Source of the DNA: an uncultured Methanoregulaceae archaeon
GTDB taxonomy: Archaea > Halobacteriota > Methanomicrobia > Methanomicrobiales > Methanospirillaceae
Length of the DNA: 64,000 nucleotides
Direction of reading: 5' to 3'
NCBI GenBank assembly: GCA_963717525.1
Contig: OY970343.1
Location: forward strand, 1,088,001-1,152,000
Shown here: piece after piece, positions 5,395 to 55,796 of the stretch
How positions within the stretch are numbered: the first letter of the stretch is position 1
Layout: each line of letters opens with the position of its first letter
Translations under genes and position numbers: made by a program
The notes under the pieces: generated by a model
Database searches by the model: none
Told to the model about the DNA's origin: nothing
What the model saw: only the letters and a program-made list of their open reading frames with translations

Positions 5395-5541
5395 AATGCC
5401 TGATCTATACGCACCGGAAGGGAATGAACCTTTGCGGATCCGGCTTCATTTTTGCCCCGGTTGTCTTTCCCTGGGGAACAACCCTTTTTATGAGAAGATG
5501 CAATACTTAAAAAATCAGGCAGACTCCAGAGGAAGTAAACC

Positions 5542-6627
5542 ATGACCGAATCAGTCATCACCGAATTTACCGGGAGCCAGCGGGAATCAATCAGCCGGGT
5601 ATACCGGTACAGCCCGGGCGGGGTCAGGGTGCTGGACAGCCATGACGTGACGCGGAGGCTGTACCGGTTCGACCCGGCCACGAACACAATGACGGAGAAC
5701 GATCCCGGACAGCCGAATAAGATTCTCCGCCGGTTCGTCTTTGACAACTACGGGATGCTCGAAGAGACCTTCTCGTTCGGGAGCCCGCCCCGGACCTACC
5801 GGTACGAGGCCGGGGGCCGCCAGATTGTGATGCGGGAAGGCGGGGATTATGGTGCCGTGGGAAAGACATTCTCCTTCGAGGGCAGCGGGGTGGCCGAGAC
5901 CGCGTTCGGGCGCGACGGCAGCATAGAACGGGTCTATGTGTTCGACCCCCGGAACAAGACAATCACCATCCGTAAGGGAGGGTGGTACGGCGATGTGGAG
6001 CGGCAGCTGTTCTTTGATCGGCTGGACGTATCGGTCTTCTGCGAACTTGAGGCCTTCCTCCAGTTTTTGATGTTCTCCGAGAAGAGTGCCCGCGAAACAG
6101 AGGCGGAGATCGATGAGCAGGTGCAGAAGATCCGGGCCTCAGCGCCCGGCCAGGGCAGGTTTGCGTACACGGGCCAGCGCCACGCGTCCGCCGAAACCAG
6201 CGGTGCGCAGGGCACGCCGGCGGCACGCGCCCCGTTGCACCCCGCGAGCCGGGGCACGGCCGCCGGCAGGGCAGGACGGGACGAGGCAGGGATTGATTTC
6301 ATCCCGGCTGCGGATTCGCCGCGGGACATCCCCCGGGGCGCTCCCGGCGCACGCGTGCAGAGCACGGCCATATCAATCGAGGAGAGGTTCCGGAGCGTGC
6401 GGGACGAAGACCGGACACTCACCGCAGGAAGAAGCGCAAGTATTCCTCTCGATGAACGGTTCCGGAGTTCCCGGGAAGAGGAGCGGACGCTCACCAAAGG
6501 GAGGAGTGCAAGCATCCCTCTGGAGGAGCGGTTCCAGAACGAGGAGAATGATAAGGACGAGCTTACCCCCGGGAGGAGCACCCAAATCTCCTACGAGGAG
6601 CGCAAGAAAGGGAGCCGGATGCAGTAA
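5542..6627 (+). CDS. Hypothetical protein with N-terminal beta-hairpin-like repeats and C-terminal 24-aa tandem repeats
   Basis: 361-aa ORF; repeats of the type GRSASIPLDERF. Confidence 0.65.
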   Translation: MTESVITEFTGSQRESISRVYRYSPGGVRVLDSHDVTRRLYRFDPATNTMTENDPGQPNKILRRFVFDNYGMLEETFSFGSPPRTYRYEAGGRQIVMREGGDYGAVGKTFSFEGSGVAETAFGRDGSIERVYVFDPRNKTITIRKGGWYGDVERQLFFDRLDVSVFCELEAFLQFLMFSEKSARETEAEIDEQVQKIRASAPGQGRFAYTGQRHASAETSGAQGTPAARAPLHPASRGTAAGRAGRDEAGIDFIPAADSPRDIPRGAPGARVQSTAISIEERFRSVRDEDRTLTAGRSASIPLDERFRSSREEERTLTKGRSASIPLEERFQNEENDKDELTPGRSTQISYEERKKGSRMQ

Positions 6628-8303: not shown

Positions 8304-11114
8304 ATGAAAAACATCATCATTAAGGGTGCGCGCCAGCACAACCTGAAAAATATCAATGTGGAGATCCCCCGTGACAAGTTAATCGTGATAACGGGGGTCT
8401 CGGGCTCGGGTAAGTCGACCCTTGCGTTTGACACGCTCTATGCCGAAGGCCAGCGGCGGTACGTCGAGTCCCTCTCCTCCTACGCCCGGCAGTTCCTTGG
8501 CATGATGCAGAAGCCCGACGTGGATTCTATTGAAGGGCTTTCGCCAGCCATCTCGATCGAGCAGAAGACCACGTCCAAAAATCCCCGTTCGACCGTGGGG
8601 ACCACCACCGAGATCTACGATTATCTCCGGCTGCTCTTTGCCCGGATCGGGATGCCATACTGCCCGGAGCACAATATCCCGATTGCCGCTCAGAGCCCGG
8701 ACCGGATCGCCGACCAGATCGCCGCGGAGCACCCGGGCATGGTCACGGTCCTTGCTCCAATAGTCCGGCAGAAGAAAGGGACCTACCAGCAGCTGTTAAA
8801 AGACCTCAATAAGGAAGGCTATGCCCGGGTCCGGGTGAACAAAAAGATCATCCGCACCGATGAGGAAATGACCCTTGACCGGTACAAGAAGCAGGATATC
8901 GAGATCGTGATTGACCGGCTGGATACCTCCGACCGGTCCCGGCTGGCTGAGGCAGTCGAGAACACGCTCAAAAAGTCCGAGGGGCTCGTCCTTGTGGCCG
9001 ACGAGGAAGGAAAAGAATCGACCTACTCCTCGCTCCTTGCCTGCCCGGTCTGCGGCCTCGCCTTCGAGGAACTCCAGCCAAGGATGTTCTCGTTCAACAG
9101 CCCGTTCGGGGCCTGCGGGGAGTGCCACGGCCTTGGCGTCAAGATGGAGTTCGACGCCGATCTCATCATCCCCGACAAGGACCGGTGCATCGCGGACGGT
9201 GCAGTGGCGCCGTACCGGAACCCGATGGACGGCTTCAGGGGCCAGTACCTGGCAACGGTGGCAAAGCACTTCGGCTTTTCTGCCTTGACCCCGATAAAGG
9301 ACCTGGACGAGCGGCAGTATAATGCGCTGATGTACGGTTCAGGTGAGAGGATGCACTTCTCGATGAGCATGAAAAACGGGGATGCCCAGTGGTCGCACAA
9401 CGGCGAGTGGGAGGGCCTCCTGCCGCAGACCGCCCGGCTCTATGCCCAGACCCAGTCCGAGTGGCGGAAGCGGGAGCTGGAGAATTATATGCGGGTCTTC
9501 CCCTGCCCGGCCTGTAAGGGAAAGCGGCTCAAGGACAAGGTGCTCGCTGTCCGGATCAATGACAAATCGATCATCGATGTCACCGATCTCTCAGTCACTG
9601 CCTGCCTCGCGTACTTCGCCGGTCTCCGGCTCACCGAGAAAGAGGAGGGGATCGCCCGGCAAATCATCAAGGAGATCCGGTCGCGCCTGCTGTTCCTGGA
9701 AAAAGTCGGTCTCGGGTACCTGACACTCTCGCGGAACGCCGGGACGCTCTCCGGTGGGGAAGCGCAGCGGATCCGGCTTGCCACCCAGATCGGCTCGAAC
9801 CTGATGGGCGTACTCTACGTGCTCGACGAGCCTTCTATCGGGCTGCACCAGCGGGACAACCGGAAGCTGATCGGCACCCTGCGGACGCTGCGCGATATAG
9901 GAAACACGCTGATTGTCGTGGAGCACGATGAGGATATGATCCGCTCTGCCGACCATGTGATCGATATCGGCCCCGGCGCCGGGCTCCACGGGGGAGCGAT
10001 TGTAGCCGAAGGAACGCCGCAACAGATCGAGAAGAACAAGAAGTCCCTCACCGGGCAGTACCTCGCCGGGAAAAAGAAGATCGATGTACCCGGAACGCGC
10101 CGGAAGGCCAAAAAATATGTGACTGTCAAAGGCTGCAAAGAGAATAACCTGAAAAACATCGATGTGAAGATCCCGATCGGCCTCTTCTCGGTCGTGACCG
10201 GGGTCTCGGGCTCGGGCAAGTCCACGCTCGTCTACGACACGCTGTACAAGGGCATGATGCAGAAGCTGTACGGCTCCCGGGAGCAGGCGGGAGCGCACAC
10301 GGCGATCACGTTCGATTCCGAGATCGACAAGGTGATCGTGATCGACCAGAGCCCGATCGGCCGCACACCGCGCTCGAACCCGGCGACCTACACCAAGGTC
10401 TTCGACGAGATCCGGACGGTCTTTGCGGAGACAAAAGAGGCAAAGATGCGGGGCTACAAGCCCGGGCGGTTCTCGTTTAACATCAGGGGCGGGCGGTGCG
10501 AAGCCTGCGAAGGTGACGGCCTGATCAAGATCGAGATGAACTTCCTGCCCGATGTCTATATCGAGTGCGAGGAGTGCAAAGGCAAGCGCTACAACCGCGA
10601 GACGCTCGAAGTGAAATACAAAGGCAAGTCAATCGCGGACATTCTCGACATGAGCGTCGAGGAAGCGATGGCACTCTTCGAGAACATCCCCTCGATCCGG
10701 GGCAAGCTCGAGATGCTCTCCCGGGTCGGCCTCGATTATGTCAAGCTCGGCCAGAGCGCGACTACGCTTTCGGGCGGGGAGGCACAAAGGATCAAGCTCA
10801 CCCGGGAACTCGCGAAGAGGGCGACAGGAAAAACCCTGTACCTGCTGGACGAGCCGACCACCGGGCTCCACTTCGACGACACGAAGAAGCTGATCAAGGT
10901 GCTCGACGATCTCGTAGAGAAGGGCAACACCGTGGTCGTGATCGAGCACAACCTCGATGTGATCAAGTCAGCCGATTATCTCATCGATATCGGGCCCGAG
11001 GGAGGGGATGCCGGCGGCGAGATCGTGGCGACCGGGACACCGGAACACGTGGCTGCGGTACCGGAGAGTTACACCGGGCAGTTTTTGAAGACGATGCTTG
11101 AGAGGAAAGCTTAG
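8304..11114 (+). CDS. uvrA: Excinuclease ABC subunit A
   Basis: GARQHNLKN, two GVSGSGKS Walker A motifs, two LSGGEAQRI signatures, Zn fingers. Confidence 0.98.
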
Positions 11115-11350: not shown

Positions 11351-12289
11351 ATGAAAACTATTCATTCTATTCCAAAATCGAATCCAAATTTGGCCAAAAT
11401 AACACTTTCAAATGCTTATGAGGATTTGCAGGTCTCTCGATTGTTATTTAAAAACAAACATTACGCACGATCGATTTTTCATCTTCAGCAAAGTGTCGAA
11501 AAGGCAGTGAAATCCTTTGGATATTATAGTGGATTATTTGACGAAAACATTGCAAAAAACATGCAATTGATCGGCCATAATGTAACGAATGCCTACCCAG
11601 TCTCTTTAGAACAATATCAGAAGATTGTAGAGTTTATAAAATCTAACCCGAATGAAGATTATGTTCAATATTTTCTTATTGAAAATTTTGCTTTTTTTAG
11701 AGAGATAAATCGAGATATTGACGATCTTTTAAAACAAATCGAAGACAATTTTCGATTAATCGATAAACTTGATTTAACTTCAGATGAAATAATTAAATAT
11801 CTCAATATTCTTGAAGAAAAAAGCATTGAAGCTAAATCAACACTGAAATTATTGAAAAGCGAAAATGTATCTGATAAAATTAGGAAAGAAATAATCGAAA
11901 TATGGAAGGTTTATATCAAGGATGAAATGAAAATTTTGTGTCATAAACATCATACTCCTTTTTTGACAGTTGAAAAAATAATAGATAAAGAATGTGAATC
12001 ATTCACGAATGAAGGGATAAGCCATGCGATATTATTTGTGTATTATCAGTACTTTGCCATTGATCCGCTTTTTTATCTCGGAATATTAACGCAGCATCAT
12101 GAACAAAAAACTCGGTATCCCAATTACAATAAAAATTTTAATCCACTGGAATACTACGATGATAAAAATCCGTTAATTGTAAATTATAACCAAATTCATA
12201 AATTTACAAAAGAAGGATTGAAACGACTTGAAAAATTATTTTCATTGGAAATTCCCTCAAAGAAAACATTATCCGGGTATAATTCTTAA
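11351..12289 (+). CDS. HEPN domain protein with large helical insertion
   Basis: AYEDL...Y.RSIFHLQQSVEKAVK...GHN and C-terminal TRYP; very AT-rich. Confidence 0.7.
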   Translation: MKTIHSIPKSNPNLAKITLSNAYEDLQVSRLLFKNKHYARSIFHLQQSVEKAVKSFGYYSGLFDENIAKNMQLIGHNVTNAYPVSLEQYQKIVEFIKSNPNEDYVQYFLIENFAFFREINRDIDDLLKQIEDNFRLIDKLDLTSDEIIKYLNILEEKSIEAKSTLKLLKSENVSDKIRKEIIEIWKVYIKDEMKILCHKHHTPFLTVEKIIDKECESFTNEGISHAILFVYYQYFAIDPLFYLGILTQHHEQKTRYPNYNKNFNPLEYYDDKNPLIVNYNQIHKFTKEGLKRLEKLFSLEIPSKKTLSGYNS

Positions 12290-12419: not shown

Positions 12420-12600
12420 ACTCGCAGCAGGGAGCGATGCATCCCCGCCTCAGGGTCCCTCACGGGGCACGGCGGGGCTGATTACCCGTGTAATGCCCTC
12501 TCCGGTAAATTGATCCGCCGCGGGGGCGTCCCTTCGGGGGCGGCGGCACTCCTCGCTCGTGGGGGTGTGGGGGCGACAGCCCCCACGATATCCCCATCAC
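12420..12600. other. GC-rich multi-hairpin non-coding element (possible structured RNA or repeat)
   Basis: Stems CCCCGCC/GGCGGGG (12443-12477), CGTCCC-TTCG-GGGGCG, GTGGGGGC-GACA-GCCCCCAC. Confidence 0.5.
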
Positions 12601-13370
12601 ACAAACCGGAACCTCCGGCGGCTCCGACCCGAAGATTTCCGGAAAATTCCGTACCGTGAGCTGAGGATTTGCAAAAATAATCGATCCGGCAGCTGAAGAT
12701 TTTGAAAAAAGATCCGGGTCACCTGCGTTTTATCTGTCATAGAATGTGCTCCCGGAATACTTATTCGTTGATAAATCCGGGCCCGTAACACCGTCCAATC
12801 TCCCTGTCCGAAAATCAGTGCTCATAAATGGCTCCATTTGCCAAAATAAGCCTAAATTGAGCCCCATATAATGCCCATAATCGGCCATAGACGCCCCTAG
12901 AACGGCCACGATTTTCAGGATAAACCGAAAACCCATCCGGACCAAAAAAGGGTCTCAAAACGCGAATACGTGAACCTTTTATTTCGTCCGATTGTCGAAA
13001 TAAGGCTGATTTGGGCTTATTTTTAAACGGAGCCCGATACGGGCTTCTTTTCGATCAGGAAATGGGTAAACGGAGGTCAGATTGAGCCCGGATTAGGGTA
13101 GAGCAGTACTCCTCCCAGCACCCTATACAAGGTGGGGTAGACATCCATCTCCCCCCTCCGCCCGCTCAAAATATTCACCGGGATTTTCCGGCTTTCCGCC
13201 TTTTCCAAAAAAAGCCGGCGCGGTTGCTGAAATATCTCAAAGAAGTTTATGGTGTTACCGGCATTTTTGAAATTCGTTCAACAGCGCTGCCAAACTTTTT
13301 AAAAATAAACTCTGACATGTGTCAGTATTTTTACAAAACCATTATAATCTCACGACGCGCACTCTCCTGC

Positions 13371-14690
13371 ATGGCAAAGAGGGCAGAGAGAAAACAGGAC
13401 ACTACCAGCGCCACAATCCCAAAGCTGGCGAAGTTTTTATCCGGGTATAGCAATTCAAGCAGCCGGGCGGGGTATAAGAATTCAATCGAATCTTTCCTGC
13501 GTTGTATCTACGGTTTGAAGAAAGAAGATATCAAAGCAGGTAAAATCCCGGCACCAGATTACAACTCGCTTTTCGAACTGTACTTACTCTCCAAGCGTGA
13601 TAACGATGCAGACTTTATCCGGTTTTCCGAACACCTGATAGAAACACGCCCGGCACTATCTGCAAAGCAAACGATGACCCTGGTCAGGTATGCAATGACC
13701 TATCACGGGATTACCATCAGCAAGGGTACCAGTCAGGATATACGTCGGGAAACCATGAAGGGCAGTGCGGCGACCGTTGACAGGGCATTGAACACCAAGA
13801 TCATCAATGCGGCACTCCAGCACTGCACAATACAAGGCAAGGCACTTTTTTTATGCCTCGCGAGTAACGGGGCCCGCCTCAACGAGATGTTAACCGTCAG
13901 TATCAACGACGTGGATTTTAATAATCACCCTGTCAAGATGACATTTCGGGGAGAGAATACCAAAACCAAGACGCAAAGGTATACTTTTATTTCCGACGAA
14001 GCAGCGGCAGCTGTTCAGGAGTGGTTGAAGGTTCGCGGTCAATATATCGAGATGAGCAACGCCAAGAGCAAGAAACTGATTGAGAGGGGACTTGCCAGCA
14101 TCAAGTCGGCTGAGGATACCCGCCTCTTCCCATTCAGCGATGCATCCGTAACCGCATGGTGGAATGATGCACTGGCAGCAAGTGGGGAACTGACAAAAGA
14201 TGACGTGACAGGTAGGAATCAGTTACGGATTCACGGATTTCGAAAATTTTTCTTGAGCCAGATGAGTTTGGTTATCAGCAAGGAGATCCCAGAATTTTTA
14301 GCCGGTCACGCATCATACCTGTCAGGTTCATACAGGAGATATGATGAGAACACCGTTGCTGCCGAGTATCTTCAAGGAATGCATATGGTCTCGGTCACCG
14401 GCAATAAACAGATAAAAGAATTGGAGAACGAGTTAAAGCAAACGATGCAGGATCAGGCAGCGAAGACGGAGAAACATGCTGAAACCCTTGAATACCTCCT
14501 CAAGAAATATATGAAGGTCGAGGAGGAATTGACCAAGTTACAGGCAGATGTCAAGGCAGGGACCGAACTCTTCCGGACTGTTATGGCCGACCCGGCCATG
14601 TTATCCAACCTGAAGGATATGTTTGCCTTGGCCGGCCGGATGAAAGACAACCCGGACCTTCTCCGGAAGATTACAAAACTGATCTCGTAA
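13371..14690 (+). CDS. Tyrosine recombinase/integrase with C-terminal coiled-coil extension
   Basis: Catalytic set R (GARLNE), K (TKTK), H..R (HGFR), H (LAGH), Y (SGSY). Confidence 0.9.
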   Translation: MAKRAERKQDTTSATIPKLAKFLSGYSNSSSRAGYKNSIESFLRCIYGLKKEDIKAGKIPAPDYNSLFELYLLSKRDNDADFIRFSEHLIETRPALSAKQTMTLVRYAMTYHGITISKGTSQDIRRETMKGSAATVDRALNTKIINAALQHCTIQGKALFLCLASNGARLNEMLTVSINDVDFNNHPVKMTFRGENTKTKTQRYTFISDEAAAAVQEWLKVRGQYIEMSNAKSKKLIERGLASIKSAEDTRLFPFSDASVTAWWNDALAASGELTKDDVTGRNQLRIHGFRKFFLSQMSLVISKEIPEFLAGHASYLSGSYRRYDENTVAAEYLQGMHMVSVTGNKQIKELENELKQTMQDQAAKTEKHAETLEYLLKKYMKVEEELTKLQADVKAGTELFRTVMADPAMLSNLKDMFALAGRMKDNPDLLRKITKLIS

Positions 14691-14723: not shown

Positions 14724-15422
14724 TCATTTCTTCACGGGGAACAAACGTTCGTTTTCATTTCTCTGCTCATACTCTAACCGTTCCCGCTCTTTAAGCAATT
14801 CACCACCACGCTCGGTCTGCCAACCCCGCATCATATCGAAAAATACGCACACTTCGAAAAACCTGTCGTAATAGAAAAACGGCAATGCTATTCTCTTTCC
14901 GTTTGCATCGACAGGTCGGGTTGCCGGGGGCCAGATCAGACGTGCCATGAGATATTGGAACCATCTTTCTACTATCGTATCGATTTCGTTATTGACAAGA
15001 GCCAGTTCAAAGTAACTGGGTGATGCCCCCAAATAGCGTTTCAGTTTACCCTTATCGCCCTTTGAAAAGTGAGGGGGGAATCGTTCATTCACCAGGGCGT
15101 CGAGAACCCAGTCAGTACGATACAAATTCTCTCTGAGTTCCCTGTAATTGGTATAAATCTCTAGAATAGCGGCAGTGTTCTTTCTTATGAGGTATACCGA
15201 TTTAGGCCCGCCAACCGATTCCTTCAATTTTTCTTCCTTGATATCGATAACTTCCTCAGTGCGGAGTTCCTCCAATGGCTTTGTCAAAGCAGCGTACGAG
15301 TTTTTGTATTTTTTATTGACCTCTGTAAATTCAATCAGATACTGTGTCGTTGCTTCTCTCCGGGCAATCAAGCATTCCAGTATCTTTAATTTAAGTTCAC
15401 GATCCGCCACTTTTCTCGCCAT
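14724..15422 (-). CDS. Putative winged-helix DNA-binding protein
   Basis: KILECL...L..PLEEL...V...GGPKSVY wHTH-like pattern; convergent with the integrase. Confidence 0.55.
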   Translation of the reverse strand: MARKVADRELKLKILECLIARREATTQYLIEFTEVNKKYKNSYAALTKPLEELRTEEVIDIKEEKLKESVGGPKSVYLIRKNTAAILEIYTNYRELRENLYRTDWVLDALVNERFPPHFSKGDKGKLKRYLGASPSYFELALVNNEIDTIVERWFQYLMARLIWPPATRPVDANGKRIALPFFYYDRFFEVCVFFDMMRGWQTERGGELLKERERLEYEQRNENERLFPVKK

Positions 15423-15591
15423 ATATTCCCTCAACCACAATAACTCGCGTAGATATTTCTATTTTACGAGTAATCTGTTGTGTCAATTCTGTGGACATAA
15501 TCGCAGTACAAGTTTAATTGTCCTTCTCTTGACCAGAGTCTCTTCCGGAGAGTGAGCGAACATTTCGCGGACTCCAGAAAAAAAGTGAATT

Positions 15592-16023: not shown

Positions 16024-17103
16024 CGTTATCCCTCCATGGTTACTGTTGTGACAGACTCCTGAAGTCAGTCGATCCAGCACGGCGAGCGCCAGCGATACCG
16101 TCACCAGCGACCCGTTGCCGACCCAATATAACAACTCATGTTTGTCCATGCGTTTTCCCTCATGCCACCCCAAACAACCAAGGGGCATTCAGATCTATGC
16201 GAAGAACCTTAAAATAACTAATTTCTAGCCCCTTTTTCATGATTAGAGCTATTTAATCGAGTATTTTCTCGCAAGCTTAACTCAATCTTGCGAGCAAAAC
16301 CGGAAATTTCTCGCAGAAGTGCCATAGAATTACGATAAATCGGATGTGTTTCCTCGTACATGAGGGGTGTTTTCAGAAAAATTCCGAGCCTACCCCCGTA
16401 TAATTGAACAATGCGGTTCTGAGGAAATATTGACGGGTTCGGACTTTTTTACGAGAGGAAATCAAATATCTGCTGTAGACGCCTCAGAATCACCAACGTG
16501 GATTGACTTAAAAACAGCGAGAGATCCTTACCAATTTTGGCAGGAATCTCTCGCATTTCTGGCGTTTATTACTATTTATAGGTCCATCGGGATCAAATTC
16601 CAACGGTTTTTTGTAAGGTTTTGTCACTAAAAATGGATGATTATTTTGAGGTGTTTTTTGTTTTGAGAAAAAACAACAGATTTACGTCGTAAAAGATACA
16701 TCGCATTTTACCGTAGTGTTCCGTTGTGTTGGAACCAAAGAAACTCCCTAGTATTCATCGATCAATTCCTTCTGAAGAGACTTGGATCCAGACCTCAGAG
16801 GAGAGCGCGGATGTCTGGTGTATTCTGATAAGTTGGCGGTTGATAGGAGGTTTTTCCGAAGAAAAATTAAAGATCAACCATGAACCTATCAGCATCTGCG
16901 GCCATGTCGCTCCGCAATCCTTGCCTCGGTATGTTTGGCATAGTTTCCACAGGTTGGCACTACGTGGTGGTGCCCCAAAGAGGAAATCCCCAATGTATTT
17001 TTTATTTCCTATTAAAGGAACGATATAAATCCAAAATTTTGGAAAATTTTATACCAGTAAAATCGCCGGAAAAATCAGAACCGGGACACGGATCTAGGCG
17101 ATA

Positions 17104-17194
17104 GATCTTGTTGCGTTAACGGGACTTAACAAAATTAATATCGTCGTGACCTATCAATGTTGACTATTAAAAGTCCCGACAACGAACCAGAACC
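17104..17194. repeat. Dispersed palindrome P1 (subfamily A, 91 bp)
   Basis: Arms gatcttgttgcgttaacgggactt / aagtcccgacaacgaaccagaacc. Confidence 0.85.
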
Positions 17195-17278
17195 CTGATA
17201 ACAATAGAATAAAAATGCTCCCCACTTATTACTATATACTAATGTCCGGAGAGGTAACCCCGGGCAGAGTTTGATACC

Positions 17279-20253: not shown

Positions 20254-20341
20254 CTTTTTTTAGATTATTCAAGATAGGTTCTTCGAGGAAATCAAATGCC
20301 GTACTAAAAAAGTTGGGGTATTCTAAAATTTCAACCGTTTT

Positions 20342-20674
20342 TCAGTTGGACTTTTCAGATTCTAGAGTTACAATTTTCTTTGGTCTTCCACGTTTGCGTT
20401 TAGGACCATCGGCGGGTTTAGTTTCGTCCGTTTTGACCTTGCGGGGTCTCCCTCGCGGCCTCTTCTCTTTTTGTACGATTTTTTCATCGGGTTCAACCTT
20501 GCGCGGTCTTCCTCTTTTTCGTTTCTCACCCATGGTAGGAGTGGATTTTATTGGTTTTTCATCAGGAATAACTTTAATTTTTCCATCGGAGACGAATTTT
20601 AACAAAACTTTCTCAATCTCGTCGCCAATGGCACGATTTAATTTTGAAAAATCGCGTGGGGATATTTGATACAT
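20342..20674 (-). CDS. Small three-AT-hook (HMGA-like) DNA-binding protein, copy 1
   Basis: KRGRPRK, PRGRPRK, KRGRPKK; paralog at 45620-45949. Confidence 0.8.
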   Translation of the reverse strand: MYQISPRDFSKLNRAIGDEIEKVLLKFVSDGKIKVIPDEKPIKSTPTMGEKRKRGRPRKVEPDEKIVQKEKRPRGRPRKVKTDETKPADGPKRKRGRPKKIVTLESEKSN

Positions 20675-20790
20675 GGTTTGAAAAAGGATTTCTGAATATA
20701 AATGATTTCTCTTAATATTCCCCTTGCCTTGCGAAATCTAGAACAGTTTTATTAATTTAGTAGGTGGTAGAGATTACCTTTAGATGAATT

Positions 20791-33532: not shown

Positions 33533-33788
33533 TAATGCCGCGGATTTCATGACAGGCAGTGGAGTATAAGCCTCAGTTCATCTCTCATTTTTGAAAAGTT
33601 CCATACATCCTAAACCGCGGGAAAAATACAAGCCGCAAACTGGATCCGAGCGATAGGATTTGATAGGTTGAGGGGCTCAATGTCCCGCCCGGTTTCCGGT
33701 TCGATTTTCCAGCGATTCTCTAGGCAGAAATCTCTCTAAAATTTTAGATTTTACATTATTCCTTTAATAGGAATAAAATGAAATTAAG

Positions 33789-33894
33789 GGTTCTGTTACG
33801 TTGTCGGGGCTTCGTCGAGAAAACCCGGGAATATATGAATTTTCACGATGTAAAATTTGTATAAATAATCAAAGTCCCGAGAAGCATCAGGACC
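33789..33894. repeat. Palindrome P8 (subfamily A, 106 bp)
   Basis: ggttctgttacgttgtcggggctt / aagtcccgagaagcatcaggacc. Confidence 0.75.
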
Positions 33895-34779: not shown

Positions 34780-37345
34780 ATGGTAGAAAAAATTGAAGAT
34801 GGGTCTTTTTCTGAGGAAAATTCAAAATTGAAGCTATTTATTGCATATTCGCATAAAGACAATACCCTTGAAAAAACATTTATTGAAGATTTTAAAACGC
34901 ATATCGCTCCTTTTAAAAACAATTGTTTAGTTGAAGAATGGTACGATCATGAATTATTACCTGGTGATGAATTAGAGAGAATAAATTCCAATTTAGAAAA
35001 TTCGGATATCATTTGTTTATTTCTCTCAGCATATTTTCTGGATTCTCGTGCATGTATGAATGAAAAAAGAAAGGCAATGGAATTTAGAAAAAAGAAGGGC
35101 GTTCAAGTCATGCCAATTATTTTGTCACCATGTGGATGGAAAGAAGATCCTGATATAATCAAATTAAAATCAATGCCAACCGATGGGAAACCAGTCTCAT
35201 CATTTATTGATAAAAATGAAGCTTGGCAGGACGTCTGTGAAGGATTAAAAAAATTGATTGAGCGAGAGACGAGGATAAAGAATCTGACGATAACTGGACA
35301 ATTTAATAAATTTCTATATGATGCAGATTTATTTACAAAAAACCACTCTACTAAAGAAACCGTTTCTTTAAATGACATTTATATTGATACAGAACTTCAG
35401 AAAATTGATAGTTTCAAAAAAATTTCAACTATAATTAATTCTCATGAACTTCTAGATAATCTCTTGTCCGAGAAAAAAATTATTATAGCCGGTGAAAATC
35501 AATCTGGAAAAACAACTCTTTGTAAAAGATTATTTTGCGATTTACGCACTCTAAATTTAATTCCGGTATATGTCTCAGCAGAAAAAATTTCACATCCTGG
35601 TAAGATAGATAATTTTATTGAAAAATCTCTTCATGAACAATATAACAATTTTAACGAGAGTGAACTCAATCGGGAGAAAATAGTTCCAATTATCGATGAC
35701 TTCCATTATGTGGAAGACAAAGAAAAACACATCACGAATTTATTAAAATATTCCTTATGCGTTATCATCGTCGATGAAATTTTCAATATAAATATCAAAG
35801 ATGAAACACTCATCTATTCCTTTACAACTTTCAGAATTAAAGAACTAAAACCGTCAATAAGATATGAGTTGGTAAAAAAATGGGTTGGTTTATCCGATAA
35901 AGGTTTTAGTTACCAAGGTATTGATAATAATGTTGAACTAATAAATAACACTCTAGGAAGAAATATTGGCAAGGGCTTAATACCTGCTTATCCCTTCTTT
36001 ATTTTGTCCACTCTTTTCACCTATGAAACTTTCTTACCGCTTAATCAGGATATTACTTCGCAAGGCCATTGTTATCAAGCGTTCATCTATTATTATTTAG
36101 GAACAAAAAGAGGTGTGAAATTTGATGCAATGGATGTATATTTGAATTTTTTAAGTGAAGTTGCATCTTACATGCATCTAACGAAAAAAAATGAATTGAA
36201 TCCTTATGACTTTTCCAATTTTATGAAAAATTATTCTTCAAAATATAATCTCCCGATTTCACAGGATATTCTTCTTGATAATTTATTCGAAATCTTCTCC
36301 AAAAACAGTTTTAATAATTACAAATTCAAATACCAATGTTTTTATTATTATTTTGTCGCCAAAGCGTTTTCTGATCACGCAGAAGAACCAAAAGAGTGGG
36401 AAAGAATACTAGATATTCTACATAATCTTCAAATTGACGAGAATGCCTATATTACAGTTTTCCTAATTCATCATTCCAAAAAAATCGGAATTTTTGATGA
36501 GATCGAAAGAATTTCATCATCGCTGTTTAGCAATTATCGTCCTGCGACCTTAGATAAAGATGAACTCGGATTTTTCGATGAACAGTCCCACAATATCGTT
36601 AAAGCCGTATTACCTCCGACGAATCATACCCCCGAAATGGAAAGAAATCGAAGATTAAAACTAGAAGATCAAATGGAACAGTCCAGCGATTCCGAAATAG
36701 AACAAGTCAAAGGAAATGGTGCAGCAATCAATGATTTTAGGAAGGCAATAAAAACAGTTGAGGTAATGGGATGCATTATCCGAAACCGTGCAGGTTCTTT
36801 AGAGCGAGATAAGCTGCAAAATATTTTTTTGGACGGTATGAATGTTCATCTTCGATTACTTTCCTCATTTATTAATATAATAAAAGGAGATAATGAGCAA
36901 AAAGAAATTGTTGAATATATCTCAAAAAGATTAAGTCACTTAGATGAGGGGAAGAACCCAAATGAAAAATTAACAGAAGAGAAAAAAAAGAAGTATGCAT
37001 ATAATATTTTTTGGAATGCCAACTTCTTTGTGATTTATGGGATTCTTTATAAAATTGTTCATTCACTTGGTTCTGATAAATTAATTGAAATTTCTAATCA
37101 AATTTGTGAAAATATTGATAATCCTTCATCTATTTTAGTAAAGCATGGAATTCTAATGGGATATGAAAAAAATTTGCAAATTGATGAACTAAATAAACGG
37201 ATTAATGAAAATGATTTTTCAAAGATTCCTAAGAAAGTCGCAGAAATGATTGTAGTAGATTACAGACTCGGTAAATCAGATTACTTATCGTGATAAACAA
37301 CGAATCGAAAATACTTTAAACATATCCAGACATCGATTAAAATAA
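34780..37345 (+). CDS. TIR domain + STAND/NACHT-like NTPase protein (probable 1-nt insertion near 37266; ORF as given ends at 37293)
   Basis: LFIAYSHKD, FLDS.ACMNE (TIR), GENQSGKTT Walker A, IIDD Walker B; alternative frame continues QITYRDKQRIENTL to 37345. Confidence 0.8.
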
Positions 37346-44643: not shown

Positions 44644-44734
44644 AGTTCTGTTGCGTTAACGGGATTTAAAGAAATAATATCGTTGTAAATCATCAATATT
44701 CACTATTTAACCACTCCGATAACGCATCCGAACC
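44644..44734. repeat. Palindrome P12 (subfamily A, 91 bp)
   Basis: agttctgttgcgttaacgggat / ctccgataacgcatccgaacc; loop similar to P1. Confidence 0.85.
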
Positions 44735-45363
44735 ATAAAAATTATTTATGTTCCTAATTCCTGGAAATTAAGCGAAGTATTACGACTCCAACAATAGCTG
44801 TCATTGGAAACAATCAGAGAAAGAGGAGTGGTAGCGTTGCCGGTTTCATTTCCGGACAATCTGGAACCCGGATGTTTTCAAGGCTCCTTCAGAAATCATC
44901 TCCGTTTAAAATCCCGTTTATTTCCTTTTTTACGAGTAATAGGAGAGAGGAGTCTATTTCGAAGGGAAAAAATACGGTTTCATTTCCTATTTTCTTTTAA
45001 TACAAATAAATGGAAAAAGAGTACAAGAAACAGTATTACCTTCTCTTAATTTTGATTAATGGATTCTGAGCGTGAAAAATTACTTTTCCTTCTTTACACC
45101 CTTAAACGGGGTTCCATTTTCTTTCACGGCCATAAATTGCCCTGTAGTTGTGTCTCTCTTAACATATCGTTCTGTTTTAGGATTGAGAACCTGACTTCGA
45201 TCATCTACCTTTCCTATTCGAAAACCTTTACCGGTATCCTTTGCCATTTCACTTTCTCCTCAGCAACAACTCTTAACGAATTATAAGAAAATTGTTGTCA
45301 AAATCATATAACCAATTAATAAAATAAAAATATTCCCATGAATTTTAATAAAATGACAGGATT

Positions 45364-45619: not shown

Positions 45620-45949
45620 TCAGTCTGATTTTTCATATTGTGGAGTTGCAACTTTTTTAGGTCTGCCGCGTTTGCGTTTTGGGCCATCGGCGGTTTTTGT
45701 CTCATTGTTTTTGACTTTGCGAGGTCTACCCCGGGGTCTCTTCTCTTTTTGTTCGATTTTCTCAGCAGGTTTTACCTTGCGCGGCCTATCCCTTTTTCGG
45801 GTCTCACCGTCGGTGGCGGATTTTAATGATTTCTCATCAGAAATTACTTTGATTTTACCATCGGAGACGAACTTTAACAAAACCTTCTCAATTTCGTTGT
45901 TAATATCACGATTCAATTTAGAAAAATCGCGTGGGGTTATTTGATACAT
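45620..45949 (-). CDS. Small AT-hook (HMGA-like) DNA-binding protein, copy 2
   Basis: 32 of 36 N-terminal residues identical to copy 1; hooks RDRP (degenerate), RGRP, RGRP. Confidence 0.8.
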   Translation of the reverse strand: MYQITPRDFSKLNRDINNEIEKVLLKFVSDGKIKVISDEKSLKSATDGETRKRDRPRKVKPAEKIEQKEKRPRGRPRKVKNNETKTADGPKRKRGRPKKVATPQYEKSD

Positions 45950-48935: not shown

Positions 48936-49468
48936 TCAGCCGCAATAGTGGCAATTTACTAAGCAGGAGAACTGAGCTTTTACTCCAAGCTCGCGCATCA
49001 GAGCAAATGTGTCTAAATAGGAAACTCCGACCCCGTTACAAGCATTCGGGATCGGAATTCTTCTTTTAATGTCGGAATTGTACCTTTCATCGGTTACCAC
49101 TGTAAATCCTTTAGCTAGAGCAAAAGCAATTAACCAACCATCAGCGTTGTTAGCGAATTCAGCTTTCGCGCCAGGGATATACTGAGGCTGAACTGAGCCC
49201 AACCCATAACAGTTGCGTAAGCGTCAATCACATCCTGTTGGTTCGTCGAATCGAACCATTGATGAAAATTTCCACCGATCCAAGTCGTGAGATCGTCATT
49301 ACCTCTGTCAATTTCATCCTTGACTTTGTCAATACTCCTAACCAGTCCACCCCTCGCATGCCTGATTAATGCATCCCAAAAGCCTGGGGCTATATCAAAG
49401 GCGTAATACCTCTTTGCTGATTCGATGAACACATTTGCATCGAGAATGAAAATCCTTGCAGGGCTCAT
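48936..49468 (-). CDS. PIN-domain protein (DUF4411-like), frameshifted near 49192
   Basis: ILDANVFI, FWD.L, ADGWLIAFA, VVTDE, IPNAC. Confidence 0.8.
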
Positions 49469-50670
49469 TCAGATCCGCCCATACCGAGTCTCTTTGCATA
49501 ATTTTCAAAAGTCTCCCCATAGAGCCCGGTCAGGTTATAGGCATCTCGGTACAGTAGATTTCCTTCTCTTACCGCACTTATAACTGCCATGGCGAAACGA
49601 TGCCCAATACGCAAATTCTGGTTGGCATAGAAGTCACCGCCACCTACCTGCCTGCCAGCATTATCGTGAATTTCACGCTCGTATTCTTGATAAAACCCGG
49701 CAAACTCATCATCCTTAATAAGTCCGAGGTTGAGTGTCCTGTAAGCAGCAACGAGCTTGCTTACTTTGAAATGGAGAGCGACAGACTCAAAACGCTCTGC
49801 ATCATCCTTCACCGAAGGCCAGTAGTCTCGTAGTTGTTTTGCCGGGATGAGAAATTCCGCAGCGATACGATTACTTGCCCTTTCTATTTCGTCATTGGCC
49901 GGCCGGAGTTCCTTCAAATCAAAGACAGCGCTTTTTCCAAACCATATATGGGCCAGTTCATGCGCCAAGGTAAACATCTGCGCCGCCTTTCCATCGGCAT
50001 TATTGATAAAAACGAGCGGAGCATATTCGTCTATGAGGACAAAACCTCGAAATTCAGCAACATCCAGTTTGCGATGCGGATTATTTCCAACAATACCATT
50101 TACGACCAGAAGGATGCCAGCCTCCTCTATTTTAGTCCTTAGCTCCTGCAGCGCCTTGGTCCAGTTGGGTTGTTCAGCCGCCCATCTTTCTGAAAGTCCC
50201 AGAGTACGTCTGATTTCGCTTGCGATGTGTTCCGGTTTATCACCGTGATGTACCGAACGGACAAAACTCAGTGGTTCTTCACCTTGTTCCATCAGGTATT
50301 CACGCATCCAGCCTTGACGTTTCTCCATCATTTGGATAGTCTCAATTAAGTCAGCACTGGGTTGTTGTGAGTGATTACCCAAGGTTCGGAAATGGGGGAT
50401 CGGTAATTGCTCGGACGGAGGTTCTGATAGGAAGAAAAAACCCAATGGTGTCGAAGTTGCTTTTGCAAGTTTCTCGACCTCTGGTAATGTCGGGCGGCTC
50501 TCCCCGTTAAGCCACTTTGATATTTTCGGCAGGCTATGTTGAAGGTCATCTTGCCCCCGTCCTGACCGGGCCATCGCCCAACGAAGGATAGATCCACTTA
50601 TTGGGACATGGGGCTTTGCTGAATGACCGTGGTCTTTCCAAATACTTTCGGTTTTCCCATTATCCGACAT
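49465..50670 (-). CDS. HTH + ImmA/IrrE family metallopeptidase
   Basis: N-terminal HTH, FRGF, FTLAHELAH, AAEFL.P; ATGA overlap with the PIN gene. Confidence 0.88.
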   Translation of the reverse strand: MSDNGKTESIWKDHGHSAKPHVPISGSILRWAMARSGRGQDDLQHSLPKISKWLNGESRPTLPEVEKLAKATSTPLGFFFLSEPPSEQLPIPHFRTLGNHSQQPSADLIETIQMMEKRQGWMREYLMEQGEEPLSFVRSVHHGDKPEHIASEIRRTLGLSERWAAEQPNWTKALQELRTKIEEAGILLVVNGIVGNNPHRKLDVAEFRGFVLIDEYAPLVFINNADGKAAQMFTLAHELAHIWFGKSAVFDLKELRPANDEIERASNRIAAEFLIPAKQLRDYWPSVKDDAERFESVALHFKVSKLVAAYRTLNLGLIKDDEFAGFYQEYEREIHDNAGRQVGGGDFYANQNLRIGHRFAMAVISAVREGNLLYRDAYNLTGLYGETFENYAKRLGMGGSE

Positions 50671-51176: not shown

Positions 51177-51248
51177 GGTTCGGCTGCGTCAGAGAGACTG
51201 GGTTACGACGATATTATTTTTGTTAAGTCCCGTTACCGCAACAGCACC
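51177..51248. repeat. Palindrome P17 (subfamily A, 72 bp, opposite orientation)
   Basis: Rev-comp ggtgctgttgcggtaacgggacttaacaaaaataatatcgtcgt is nearly identical to the left half of P1. Confidence 0.85.
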
Positions 51249-51262
51249 GATTCACCCTATCT

Positions 51263-53138: not shown

Positions 53139-53784
53139 ATGCATTATCTGAAAAGACAGACAGGGAGAGATGGCGAAGAGGCAGTTTCTCCGGTAGTCGG
53201 GGTGATGTTGATGCTGGTGGTCACCATCATCATCGCGGCAGTCGTGAGCGGATTTGCCGGGGGGTTGATTGGCGGGGGGACGCCAGCTGCTCCGACCGTC
53301 AGTATGGACGTGAAGATCGTAAACACGGGCAGCGCTACCGGAAGCGGATTCTTTGCAACCGTGACCGGGGTCAGTGCTCCGGTCCAGACGCATAATCTTG
53401 AGCTGAATTACTGCGTGGACAACGACGAGCAGGACCAACGGTTACACGATGATAAATGGCGGGAACACATCGGTTTACATTAACGGTTCGGCCCTTGCGG
53501 TTCCACCTCTTGGGTACGGGCCCGGCGTGACCTCAGGTGTATTCGGTGACAATTTCGGCAACTACACCCTTGTGTCGGGAACCGGCCTTGCGGCAACACC
53601 CTCTTCGAACTATGGTTCAGTTACTCTATACCAGTACTCTGCTACAACTATGGACAACACCGTGGAGGTACTCGGGAATAACTGGCAGAACCTCAAGCTG
53701 GGGGATACGGTAACGGTCACGCTGGTTGACGTCACTTCTGGGAAGTCGATATACAAGAAGACTGTGCCGGTTACGGAGGGATAA
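53139..53784 (+). CDS. Archaeal type IV pilin (DUF1628 N-terminus), type A (1-nt insertion near 53406)
   Basis: EAVSPVVGVMLMLVVTIIIAAVV class III signal / H-domain. Confidence 0.85.
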
Positions 53785-53787
53785 GCC

Positions 53788-54312
53788 ATGACTCAAAAAT
53801 ACGGAGAAGCAGTGTCCCCGGTCGTCGGTGTGATGCTGATGCTGGTGGTTACTATCATTATCGCAGCAATCGTTTCAGCGTTTGCCGGGGGGGCGGTGAG
53901 CGGGCAGCAGAAAACGCCACAGGCAACAATCCAGGGAACGTTCAGTGTTACAAACGGTCTCCAGATCATACATGCTGACGGAGATCCCCTACCACTCAGT
54001 GAAGTCCGGTTTGTTATACGCAACGACGACACATTTGGGCCGGGCGCAGTGCAGATATCGGCAAATATCATCAACCTGAACAACCTGACTGGGTCAAACG
54101 GGAATCCGATTGGTACGTCTTTCAACGCCGGGCAAACGCTCTATCTCAACACGACAGACAGTGCCTGCAGCACCCTACAGAACCAGCAGAGCATATCGCG
54201 TCCGGACCTGTGCCTCCAGAACGCAACGAATGTTGGGAAGTCCTTCACCCTTGAAGTCGAGGATCTCAATGGGAAGATGATCTCTCAGAACAGCGTGGAG
54301 ATTAGTCCGTAA
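53788..54312 (+). CDS. Archaeal type IV pilin, type B
   Basis: EAVSPVVGVMLML...; KTPQAT, H..GD.L. Confidence 0.88.
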   Translation: MTQKYGEAVSPVVGVMLMLVVTIIIAAIVSAFAGGAVSGQQKTPQATIQGTFSVTNGLQIIHADGDPLPLSEVRFVIRNDDTFGPGAVQISANIINLNNLTGSNGNPIGTSFNAGQTLYLNTTDSACSTLQNQQSISRPDLCLQNATNVGKSFTLEVEDLNGKMISQNSVEISP

Positions 54313-54362
54313 CCGGGGCATCGCAGTCTGGACAACCAGATAATAAAAAGGTGAACAAGAAT

Positions 54363-55266
54363 ATGAAGACAAATGCTGATAGTGCAGTATCCCCAGTCGT
54401 TGGTGTGATGCTGATGCTGGTGGTCACCATCATCATTGCAGCAGTGGTGACCGGGTTCTCCGGAGGGCTGGTGGGAGGCAATAACCAGAAAGCGCCCCAG
54501 CTCACGATGGATGTCAAGATAGAGAACAACGGTTATGTTGACGGGAGTTATTTCGCTGCAACAGTTACCGGTGTTTCCAGCAGTATAAATACCCATAATC
54601 TGGAGATGGTCACGACGTGGACCAAAACCTTTTCCAATGGAACCCAGATTAACGGGGGAGGAAATGCTACACCGGGTGTCATGAACACGTTCCTTGACTG
54701 GCAGCCGAACGGCTGGATAGCAAGTGACTACTGGAACTGGACGTCACCGCAGGGATTCGGCCCGGGTGTTGGTGCGTACTCGGTACTTCTGGCCTGTAGG
54801 AAAGGTCTTGGCTTATCCACAGGGCTCGGGATCAGGGTCAAAAGGATCTTTTACCGTTGCTGATATGATGGCCGGAAAGGTATCTAATGCATCATGGTGG
54901 GGTAATTACAACCTCATGGTTGGGACGACGATGTATGCCCGGCCCTTCGGATCGGCAGGAAACCCTGACCAGGCCGGAGATCCGGGAACGCTCCTGAACT
55001 GGGGGTATGGATGTGGCGGCGTCGGCCCCTATGTCTATTCCTACGGGAGCGGAATGGGTGTTGGCGGATCGAGCGGTCAGGTCAATTTCATCCAGGGCGT
55101 AGAAGTGGATGCCATGCAGGGACTTCTGGGAACGAACTGGAACATCCTCAGGAACGGAGACATAGTCCACGTGAAAGTAATCGACGTTCCTATCGGTAAA
55201 ACAATTTGGCAGAATGATGTTGTTGTAGGAGGGCAGAATTATGTTGGCATGTCAGGATCCAACTGA
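54363..55266 (+). CDS. Archaeal type IV pilin, type A (frameshift near 54780)
   Basis: SAVSPVVGVMLML...; MDVKI.N.G; C-terminal LGTNWNILRNGD matches pilin 1 LGNNWQNLKLGD. Confidence 0.82.
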
Positions 55267-55796
55267 GAGGGCAGTGTCCCCGGTAGTCGGCGTGATGCTG
55301 ATGCTGGTGGTCACCATCATCATTGCAGCGATCGTTACCGCGTTCGCCGGGGGTATAACCCAGACCGGTGACAAGACTCCACAGGCAACCCTCACGGGAC
55401 AATTCAGCCAGAGCTCCGGTCTCGAAATGGTTCACAGCGGCGGAGATACCCTTACGACGACAAATCTCCAGGTCATTGTCCGTGAAAGTGATAACTTTGG
55501 CAACGCCCGGGGCTATCTTACCCCGTGGGTGATCAACGGGACGTTCATCCAGAACAGCCAGGGGCTATACTGGCAGAACGCGACGGATGGGTCAATTCCG
55601 GGTACTGGCATGGCATCCGGGACAAACCATGTACGTGAATGTTTCCGACTGGAATACCATGTCCACCTTCGAACACCCGACATCGACCGAGACCAGTCTC
55701 TTCTCTACAAGTAACCTCGGGAATAATCTCATTCTCGAAGTCAGCTATGCAGACGGAAAACTGATCTCAAAGAGCACGATACCCATCGTCCCGTAA
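55241..55796 (+). CDS. Archaeal type IV pilin, type B (1-nt insertion near 55601)
   Basis: RAVSPVVGVMLML...; KTPQAT; C-terminal LEV...GK.IS. Confidence 0.82.

Follow-up and report, generated by a model that had tools for sequence, protein, structure and literature searches.

The HMGA1 and HMGA2 proteins are basic, disordered chains of about 110 aa that carry three RGRP AT-hooks (PMC8476142, PMC4482583), motifs whose RGR goes into the minor groove of AATT-like tracts with low sequence specificity (PMC8476142). Four families of bacterial silencers, H-NS, Lsr2, MvaT and Rok, are described as joining an N-terminal oligomerisation domain to a C-terminal AT-minor-groove binder (PMC8476142), and CgpS, which silences AT-rich foreign DNA, is itself prophage-encoded (PMC5137423). 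In CarD of Myxococcus xanthus interactions centre on an N-terminal part that the protein cannot do without, whereas its tail of four RGRP motifs can be replaced (PMC8156234), and filamentous prophages of Cupriavidus and Ralstonia encode a small AT-hook accessory protein that has been postulated to act as a regulator (PMC10011098). Among archaeal chromatin proteins, TrmBL2 and Cbp1-Cren7 repress promoters, and Cbp1 also represses cryptic promoters from foreign DNA (PMC11894787). According to a 2024 review there is little evidence for xenogeneic silencing in Haloferax or Sulfolobales, though the pressure for it should apply (PMC11894787), and the term 'AT-hook' occurs neither in that review nor in PMC11894785.

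Here we analyse a gene from an uncultured Methanoregulaceae archaeon that invites comparison with all of these systems. It lies on the minus strand at positions 20342-20674 of the window, which is the whole stretch of 64,000 nucleotides under study, and from an ATG start it encodes P0001, a 12.7-kDa protein of 110 aa with a pI of 10.4 and 34 lysines and arginines against 17 acidic residues. An earlier note, made from the sequence letters, had described three spaced RGRP AT-hooks, and indeed their cores occupy residues 54-57 (window 20504-20515), 74-77 (20444-20455) and 95-98 (20381-20392), all on the minus strand. The Pfam AT_hook model, PF02178, matches three stretches of the protein at 34.5 bits, twice its cut-off of 17.4; with RGRP cores and basic flanks above that cut-off, P0001 qualifies as a PF02178 AT-hook motif protein. 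In a six-frame scan of the 2.29-Mb genome just two open frames, this gene and a paralog, contained at least two RGRP[RK] motifs. A word-indexed homolog search returned 85 matches, a few of which are the host genome's own copies or frameshifted reads of them. When hooks were counted over 83 of these (P0085 and P0086 left out), 50 had three RGRP motifs, 28 had two, two had one and three had none, and the spacing was 20/21 in 37 of the 50 three-RGRP homologs. After residue 29 the AlphaFold2 model of P0001 is without secondary structure (pLDDT blocks of 48-77), linker lengths vary among homologs, and the C-terminal tail of about ten residues, mixed in charge, is missing in many copies, which end directly after hook 3.

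Selection on the coding sequence was estimated from pooled pairs of 15 full-length copies, namely 13 loci and the two window copies, with broken, partial and duplicate loci left out and the pairs not being independent of one another. The resulting dN/dS was 0.037 for the hooks, 0.093 for residues 1-36 and 0.37 for the linkers. It was 0.15 for residues 1-100 in the sense frame, a value that speaks against the trivial explanation that the interval is no gene at all, being of low complexity or the antisense shadow of another frame. The opposite strand does contain an ORF of 118 aa (20313-20669), but all 15 copies keep the sense frame open, the antisense frame has two to four stops in 4 of the 15, and a conserved TATA-like element is correctly spaced from the sense ATG. 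The shadow-frame explanation thus has next to no probability, and window 20342-20674 (minus strand) encodes a genuine gene. Its product very probably binds AT-rich DNA via the minor groove.

Judged by sequence comparison, P0001 is not HMGA, H-NS or Lsr2 by descent, and its architecture appears convergent. The earlier note had called it HMGA-like, a description that fits the hooks: P0001 is also about 110 aa long and basic, with three RGRP hooks in a disordered chain. It fails elsewhere, as P0001 is without the conserved acidic C-terminal tail that HMGA2 is described as having (PMC4482583), and carries a conserved helical N-terminal module where HMGA has none. Furthermore, P0001 is the product of an archaeal accessory gene with similarity confined to the motif, most simply attributed to convergence. 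The parallel with the layout of H-NS and Lsr2, also drawn in that note, withstood comparison, in that a conserved N-terminal module precedes the hooks, a putative C-terminal AT-minor-groove binder, as in all four silencer families. However, P0001 gave no profile match to H-NS, Lsr2, MvaT or Rok (Pfam and NCBIfam, E<=0.1) and is without a folded C-terminal DNA-binding domain; its family bears two or three hooks free on a disordered tail, whereas the silencers have one hook-like loop in a folded domain. With CarD it shares a prokaryotic origin and the succession of an N-terminal structured part and a disordered multi-RGRP tail (PMC8156234), but P0001 is far smaller and possesses neither the CarD_CdnL_TRCF domain (Pfam) nor an acidic segment. 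Compared by description, the Cupriavidus and Ralstonia prophage protein is similarly a small mobile-element AT-hook protein unrelated to H-NS or Lsr2, yet it is bacterial and its hook is N-terminal. The DNA-binding domains of TrmBL2 and Cbp1-Cren7 are unlike that of P0001.

The family is previously unnamed. At E<=0.1 Pfam offered nothing for P0001 besides AT_hook, no meaningful match emerged from PHROGs, NCBIfam or PADLOC, and the best ESM Atlas match to the whole protein (0.79) fell under the chance-hit level, in line with the earlier impression that it belongs to no recognisable characterised archaeal family. No longer or fused forms were found among proteins of 194-2000 aa, which is weak evidence, and the 13-position Pfam AT_hook model, applied genus-wide, found no match even in the carrier G000, the host genome, and is hence uninformative. 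Likewise, no account of the family or of an archaeal stand-alone AT-hook protein was found in a literature survey that covered mainly the main text of open papers; proteome-wide surveys of NAPs published elsewhere or in supplements might list it.

The N-terminal module, which is new, comprises residues 1-36 (window 20567-20674, minus strand). Of the roughly 36-aa, probably helical N-terminus first proposed, about two thirds is predicted as helix and the remainder is not: AlphaFold2, given a 60-row alignment, modelled a single helix at residues 6-29, with pLDDT of 87-93 across residues 1-30 and low confidence elsewhere. The helix is amphipathic, its hydrophobic moment of 0.57 being reached by 0.5% of 5,000 shuffles. 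Comparison with solved structures and family libraries identified no known family or fold; for example, a fold search of 48,161 PDB representatives reached a best Z of 2.9, with generic helices only, and the ESM Atlas had no usable match to the N-terminus. Two apparent leads were discarded. PCNA, the top match of a PDB sequence search with the broad N-terminal profile (E 3e-5), owed its score to the adding up of three repeats of 7.5 bits each in a tandem construct, and a helix-turn-helix, suggested by eye, is not supported by the models of P0001 and of a hookless subfamily, each of which gives a single unbroken helix.

The same module extends beyond the three-hook proteins. A 40-column N-terminal profile searched against 1.84 billion representatives gave seven matches, of which four were family members, two were remote proteins and one, P0087 (2,235 aa), was an artefact of repeat summing. 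One of the remote proteins, P0089, led to a 20-member subfamily (P0089 and P0093-P0111), mostly of about 70 aa and with one member named Methanoregula, in which the module precedes a single PRPRGRP hook (hhalign 97%), although the helix of P0089 itself is not significantly amphipathic (moment reached by 13% of shuffles). In five further genomes of the genus, a probable third subfamily combines the helix with a basic linker and no RGRP (hhalign 92%, 32 columns), and its model is one long helix. This hookless subfamily is likely related to the P0001 module, but not certainly so, because short amphipathic helices can align by chance; if it is related, the N-terminal module does not always serve AT-hooks. 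On profile comparison the module is a small superfamily. The hookless gene itself resembles one half of a small regulator pair: in three loci (L048, L053 and L060, at about 1500-2150) it adjoins a conserved divergent gene of about 115 aa, these loci and L061 share a palindrome-like upstream sequence, and a C-terminal DMxKIFRKK motif is conserved.

A lone conserved amphipathic helix cannot bury its own hydrophobic face, and so a partner surface would be needed. The simplest and most likely reading is self-association, especially for the one-hook subfamily, where the same module is present and multivalency would therefore need assembly. Complex prediction with two copies of residues 1-42 scored 0.02 (mark 0.42) and counts neither way. 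Such a helix suits binding to another protein equally well, which leads to a competing proposal: P0001 might be a partner-tethered co-regulator or anti-silencer in the manner of CarD, its helix docking on host TBP, TFB, RNA polymerase, histone or Alba while its hooks reach AT-rich promoters, so that cargo genes would be activated or host chromatin loosened. CarD, with its indispensable hub and replaceable RGRP tail, provides the precedent (PMC8156234), and P0001 relatives keep the helix whether they have three hooks, a single one or, probably, none. A histone and an Alba, one of each, are encoded by the host, and restriction to one genus would fit a host-specific partner. Against this, the module resembles neither CarD nor a family for which a partner is known, the gene is not regularly accompanied by a target gene or operon, and there is no dedicated host silencer known for it to antagonise, MC1 not having been found in the 87%-complete genome. 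We consider the co-regulator proposal unlikely, though it is the main rival of the silencer-like reading set out below.

The AT-rich island postulated around the gene is an integrative element of 55,185 bp, with a GC content of 0.449 as compared to 0.545 for the genome and 16.4 A/T runs of at least six per kb as compared to 7.15 (2.3-fold); the 4 kb around the P0001 gene has a GC of only 0.402, the 1.4th percentile of the genome. Its left end is marked by a 12-bp direct attachment repeat, TTTTAAAAATAA, at window 13297-13308, which recurs at the right end about 4.5 kb past the window (G000:C1:1156471-1156482), and inverted end motifs, each present once in the genome, lie just inside both TTTTAAAAATAA copies. 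The element begins with a tyrosine integrase gene at window 13371-14690 (plus strand), for which we chose the start at 13371 because a TTG start listed at 13224 would fall beyond the attachment repeat, outside the element. The empty junction is seen in G395 (L041) and G005 (L037), which are continuous across the site, and relatives are syntenic up to the uvrA end, with synteny returning about 57 kb later. Integrase, direct repeats at both ends, an empty site in relatives and atypical GC together identify the element as a genomic island. The P0001 gene and its paralog lie 7 kb and 32 kb inside its left end.

Several further features of this region deserve mention in their own right. The element ends (window 13297-13330 and G000:C1:1156457-1156482) have a 12-bp A/T core and an intergenic insertion site with no tRNA target, and L017 has the same end and integrase start (5410-5595) beside a similar target sequence. 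Among the genes carried are those for a TIR-STAND defence-like protein, IrrE/DUF4411, PKD surface proteins, pilins and ThiC. The first of these, at window 34780-37293 (plus strand), encodes 837 aa of TIR and STAND NTPase, likely a defence gene with an N-terminal TIR variant, with strong but below-cut-off matches to NCBIfam DS8_antiphage and PADLOC PDC-S60/ThsB. At 49130-50670 (minus strand) an IrrE/M78 metallopeptidase-like gene with RmrA/CapP-like matches is followed by DUF4411, a defence-associated regulator pair. A run of archaeal type IV pilin-like genes at 53139-55714 (plus strand) includes several that are apparently frameshifted, and these and other frameshifts in the island may be assembly errors in a single-contig genome. 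Convergent with the integrase, a 238-aa gene at 14724-15440 (minus strand) appears helix-turn-helix-like by eye and is a candidate element regulator; its product matched nothing in Pfam, PHROG, NCBIfam or PADLOC. Two families of intergenic repeats of about 85 bp with hairpin potential (17000-17200, 33690-33790, 44650-44745 and 51200-51260) have several copies in the island, recur where GC is low elsewhere in the genome, and could be regulatory leaders or cassette-shuffling sites. Outside the attachment repeat, an AT-rich HEPN-domain gene directly follows uvrA (11351-12289, plus strand) at a site that varies among relatives, and a GC-rich, strongly folding, REP- or MITE-like repeat of about 180 bp at 12420-12600 has 37 blast matches in the genome.

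The paralog (window 45620-45949, minus strand), which the earlier note did not list, encodes 109 aa with 78% identity to P0001 and a degenerate hook 1 (RDRP), and is preceded by the same upstream element. Wherever a homolog carries an organism name it is Methanoregula sp., and named genome loci are assigned to Methanoregula or Methanoregulaceae, from which we infer that the host genus is Methanoregula. A profile search with the N-terminus had been suggested across archaea; run on the genus, the order and a sample of the phylum, it found the family only in this genus. Matches came from 5 of 102 other genus genomes and none of 298 from other genera of the order, a broader N-terminal profile raised the count to 10 of 102, again with none outside, and when that profile was applied to 400 other genomes sampled from the phylum, the single match belonged to the same genus. 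Neither viral contigs nor plasmid records contained a family match. Carriers are scattered, having 87-94% UvrA identity to G000, while five genomes closer to it (G395, G136, G064, G366 and G105, at 95-98%) are without a match. The gene is present twice in G000 and three times in G359, and the copies within one genome are not sisters, neither L007, L009 and L011, from one record, nor the two window copies; the gene tree, weakly resolved at depth, was used only for this point. The scattered carriers and non-sister copies point to repeated horizontal gain within one genus. Homologs are therefore accessory genes, and not core genes of known function, and P0001 represents an accessory, genus-restricted, mobile AT-hook family.

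The surroundings of the gene are equally varied. Flank comparison divided 20 entries into about 15 neighbourhood groups, or 13 after short shared stretches were merged, and no neighbour gene was found to be common to all of them. Pfam was scanned with 129 locus ORFs, comprising 119 of the 165 within 7.5 kb and ten farther off. Eight of the 15 groups hold genes that clearly mark mobility or defence, namely those for an integrase, a phage tail, restriction/DND or SRAP. They are both window contexts, one of them common to L016 (tRNA-Arg and integrase), and the groups of L017 (with the integrase end also seen in the window element), L009 (siphovirus tail genes), L021 (tail fibre and restriction genes), L020 (DndB), L019 (SRAP and ParB) and L011 (SRAP). 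Four groups had weak or distant markers (Fic in L006, DUF4062 in L015, a resolvase in L007 and a transposase in L012), L008 had none, and two were too short to judge. Most neighbourhoods are AT-rich or mobile, and a few copies lie among ordinary-looking genes. Measured against G000 instead of each host, and over entries that are not independent, flank GC did not exceed the 10th percentile for 15 of the 20 entries and stayed under the 25th for 19, with L006 (0.54) as the exception. Any gene that moves horizontally can be expected in AT-rich surroundings, which by themselves are no sign of function. L021 also encodes a TBP homolog (9658-10182, plus strand), which lies in an AT-rich stretch of restriction/AIPR defence genes at a distance of about 7 kb from the AT-hook gene.

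With integrases or phage modules near the gene in the window, L016, L017, L009 and L021, and an attachment core that is an A/T tract, one may ask whether P0001 is an architectural helper of integration or excision. It would then act in the way of a directionality or host factor and bend or bridge A/T-rich attachment sites, both of prophages and of elements with a tyrosine integrase. This role is weakened by the integrases themselves, as the three closest relatives of the element's enzyme (75-83% identity in G092, G345 and G042) occur in genomes without the family, and only one of the five other carriers has an integrase relative at all, of just 41% identity. In addition, the gene's position relative to the integrase is not fixed, and viral contigs and plasmids had no family match. 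We therefore regard a helper role in recombination as improbable.

What does travel with the gene is a short upstream element. DNA similarity between loci typically covers just 360-380 bp or so, from this element through the stop codon, and the element itself spans -35 to -1 (window 20675-20709, minus strand), with a TATA-like TTTATATT at -28 to -21 (window 20695-20702). From -35 to -21 the commonest base is found in 14-19 of 19 copies, and beyond -42 in only 6-12. Archaeal TATA boxes sit at a characteristic spacing from the transcription start, and because the distance from TTTATATT to the ATG matches that spacing, the element is likely the gene's own promoter, giving a leaderless transcript. 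A self-mobile, MITE-like cassette was considered and rejected: inspection by eye revealed neither inverted repeats at the termini nor duplicated target sequence, and the P0001 gene is not flanked by the short repeats of the island.

Conservation of the whole of -35 to -1 goes beyond the needs of a bare TATA box and might reflect, for example, binding of the protein to its own element. P0001 could accordingly be a transcription factor of low abundance that acts locally or on its own gene, or else a passenger of almost no selective consequence; in either case it would engage a few spaced A/T tracts and have no genome-scale chromatin role. The fixed hook spacing could read a set of spaced tracts, many copies have lost hooks and the C-terminal tail, and a small divergent-looking or adjacent regulator-like ORF (by eye; no Pfam match) precedes the gene in L015 and L017. 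Against this stand the strong purifying selection on 15 copies, whose neighbourhoods are unrelated and share no conserved target gene, and the low sequence specificity of AT-hooks (PMC8476142); we rate such a purely local role as quite unlikely.

The reading that we place first, at a little under an even chance, is that P0001 is a nucleoid protein of a mobile, silencer-like kind, which would coat AT-rich DNA and thereby get in the way of TBP. The gene would travel with mobile and AT-rich DNA as a self-contained unit of a promoter of about 35 bp and a gene of about 330 bp. The three RGRP hooks, some 20 residues apart and borne by the disordered C-terminal two thirds of the protein, would insert into the minor groove of A/T tracts, and self-association of the amphipathic helix would multiply them, so that AT-rich stretches may be coated or bridged. 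The TATA box is an AT-rich site that TBP binds through the minor groove, and P0001 would therefore be expected to damp promoters; the net effect would fall on the promoters of AT-rich foreign DNA, whether real or spurious, and probably on that of the P0001 gene as well. Such damping may lower the carriage cost of islands, prophage remnants and defence loci, much as element-borne CgpS or H-NS paralogs would, without kinship to them. Repression and oligomerisation are both inferred here.

Several observations fit this silencer-like reading. The hooks are under the strongest constraint and the N-terminal module is constrained too; distribution is patchy and accessory, with mobile or defence neighbours and AT-rich flanks and island; and, by analogy, the arrangement of N-terminal module and AT-hook matches that described for the four bacterial silencer families (PMC8476142). 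Others do not fit it: some copies lie amid ordinary genes (L006 and L008), there is a probable hookless sister subfamily, the P0089 helix is not significantly amphipathic, and in L012 (10001-10252) a frameshift has removed all hooks and left the N-terminal module intact, this copy lying in an insertion of about 5.5 kb relative to G000. The review cited above, moreover, finds little foreign-gene silencing in the archaea examined (PMC11894787). The target, if the silencer-like reading is correct, would be any AT-rich DNA, promoters included. The earlier suggestion that the protein binds its island's own cargo is too narrow, because the gene occurs in some 13-15 neighbourhoods, a few of them ordinary-looking, and because close relatives of the island's integrase occur in genomes without it. 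Nor can P0001 be a general host silencer, since about 95% of genus genomes, including the 99%-complete G005 and G064, show no three-hook gene.

A bolder version holds that the family is a dedicated archaeal xenogeneic silencer, independent of H-NS and Lsr2, in which a helical oligomerisation module and one to three HMGA-type hooks, under their own promoter, spread among Methanoregula elements and block TBP at TATA-like minor grooves. We think this rather unlikely. Even if true, it would be an element-borne solution and no general archaeal mechanism, as the family was found in one genus only and there in few of the genomes. For the silencing of AT-rich foreign DNA in archaea P0001 is a concrete candidate, and its relatives, which range from three hooks through two and one to none, form a natural set of controls. 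If the bolder version is true, the design of an assembly module plus an AT-hook would have been reached by convergence in a third domain of life.
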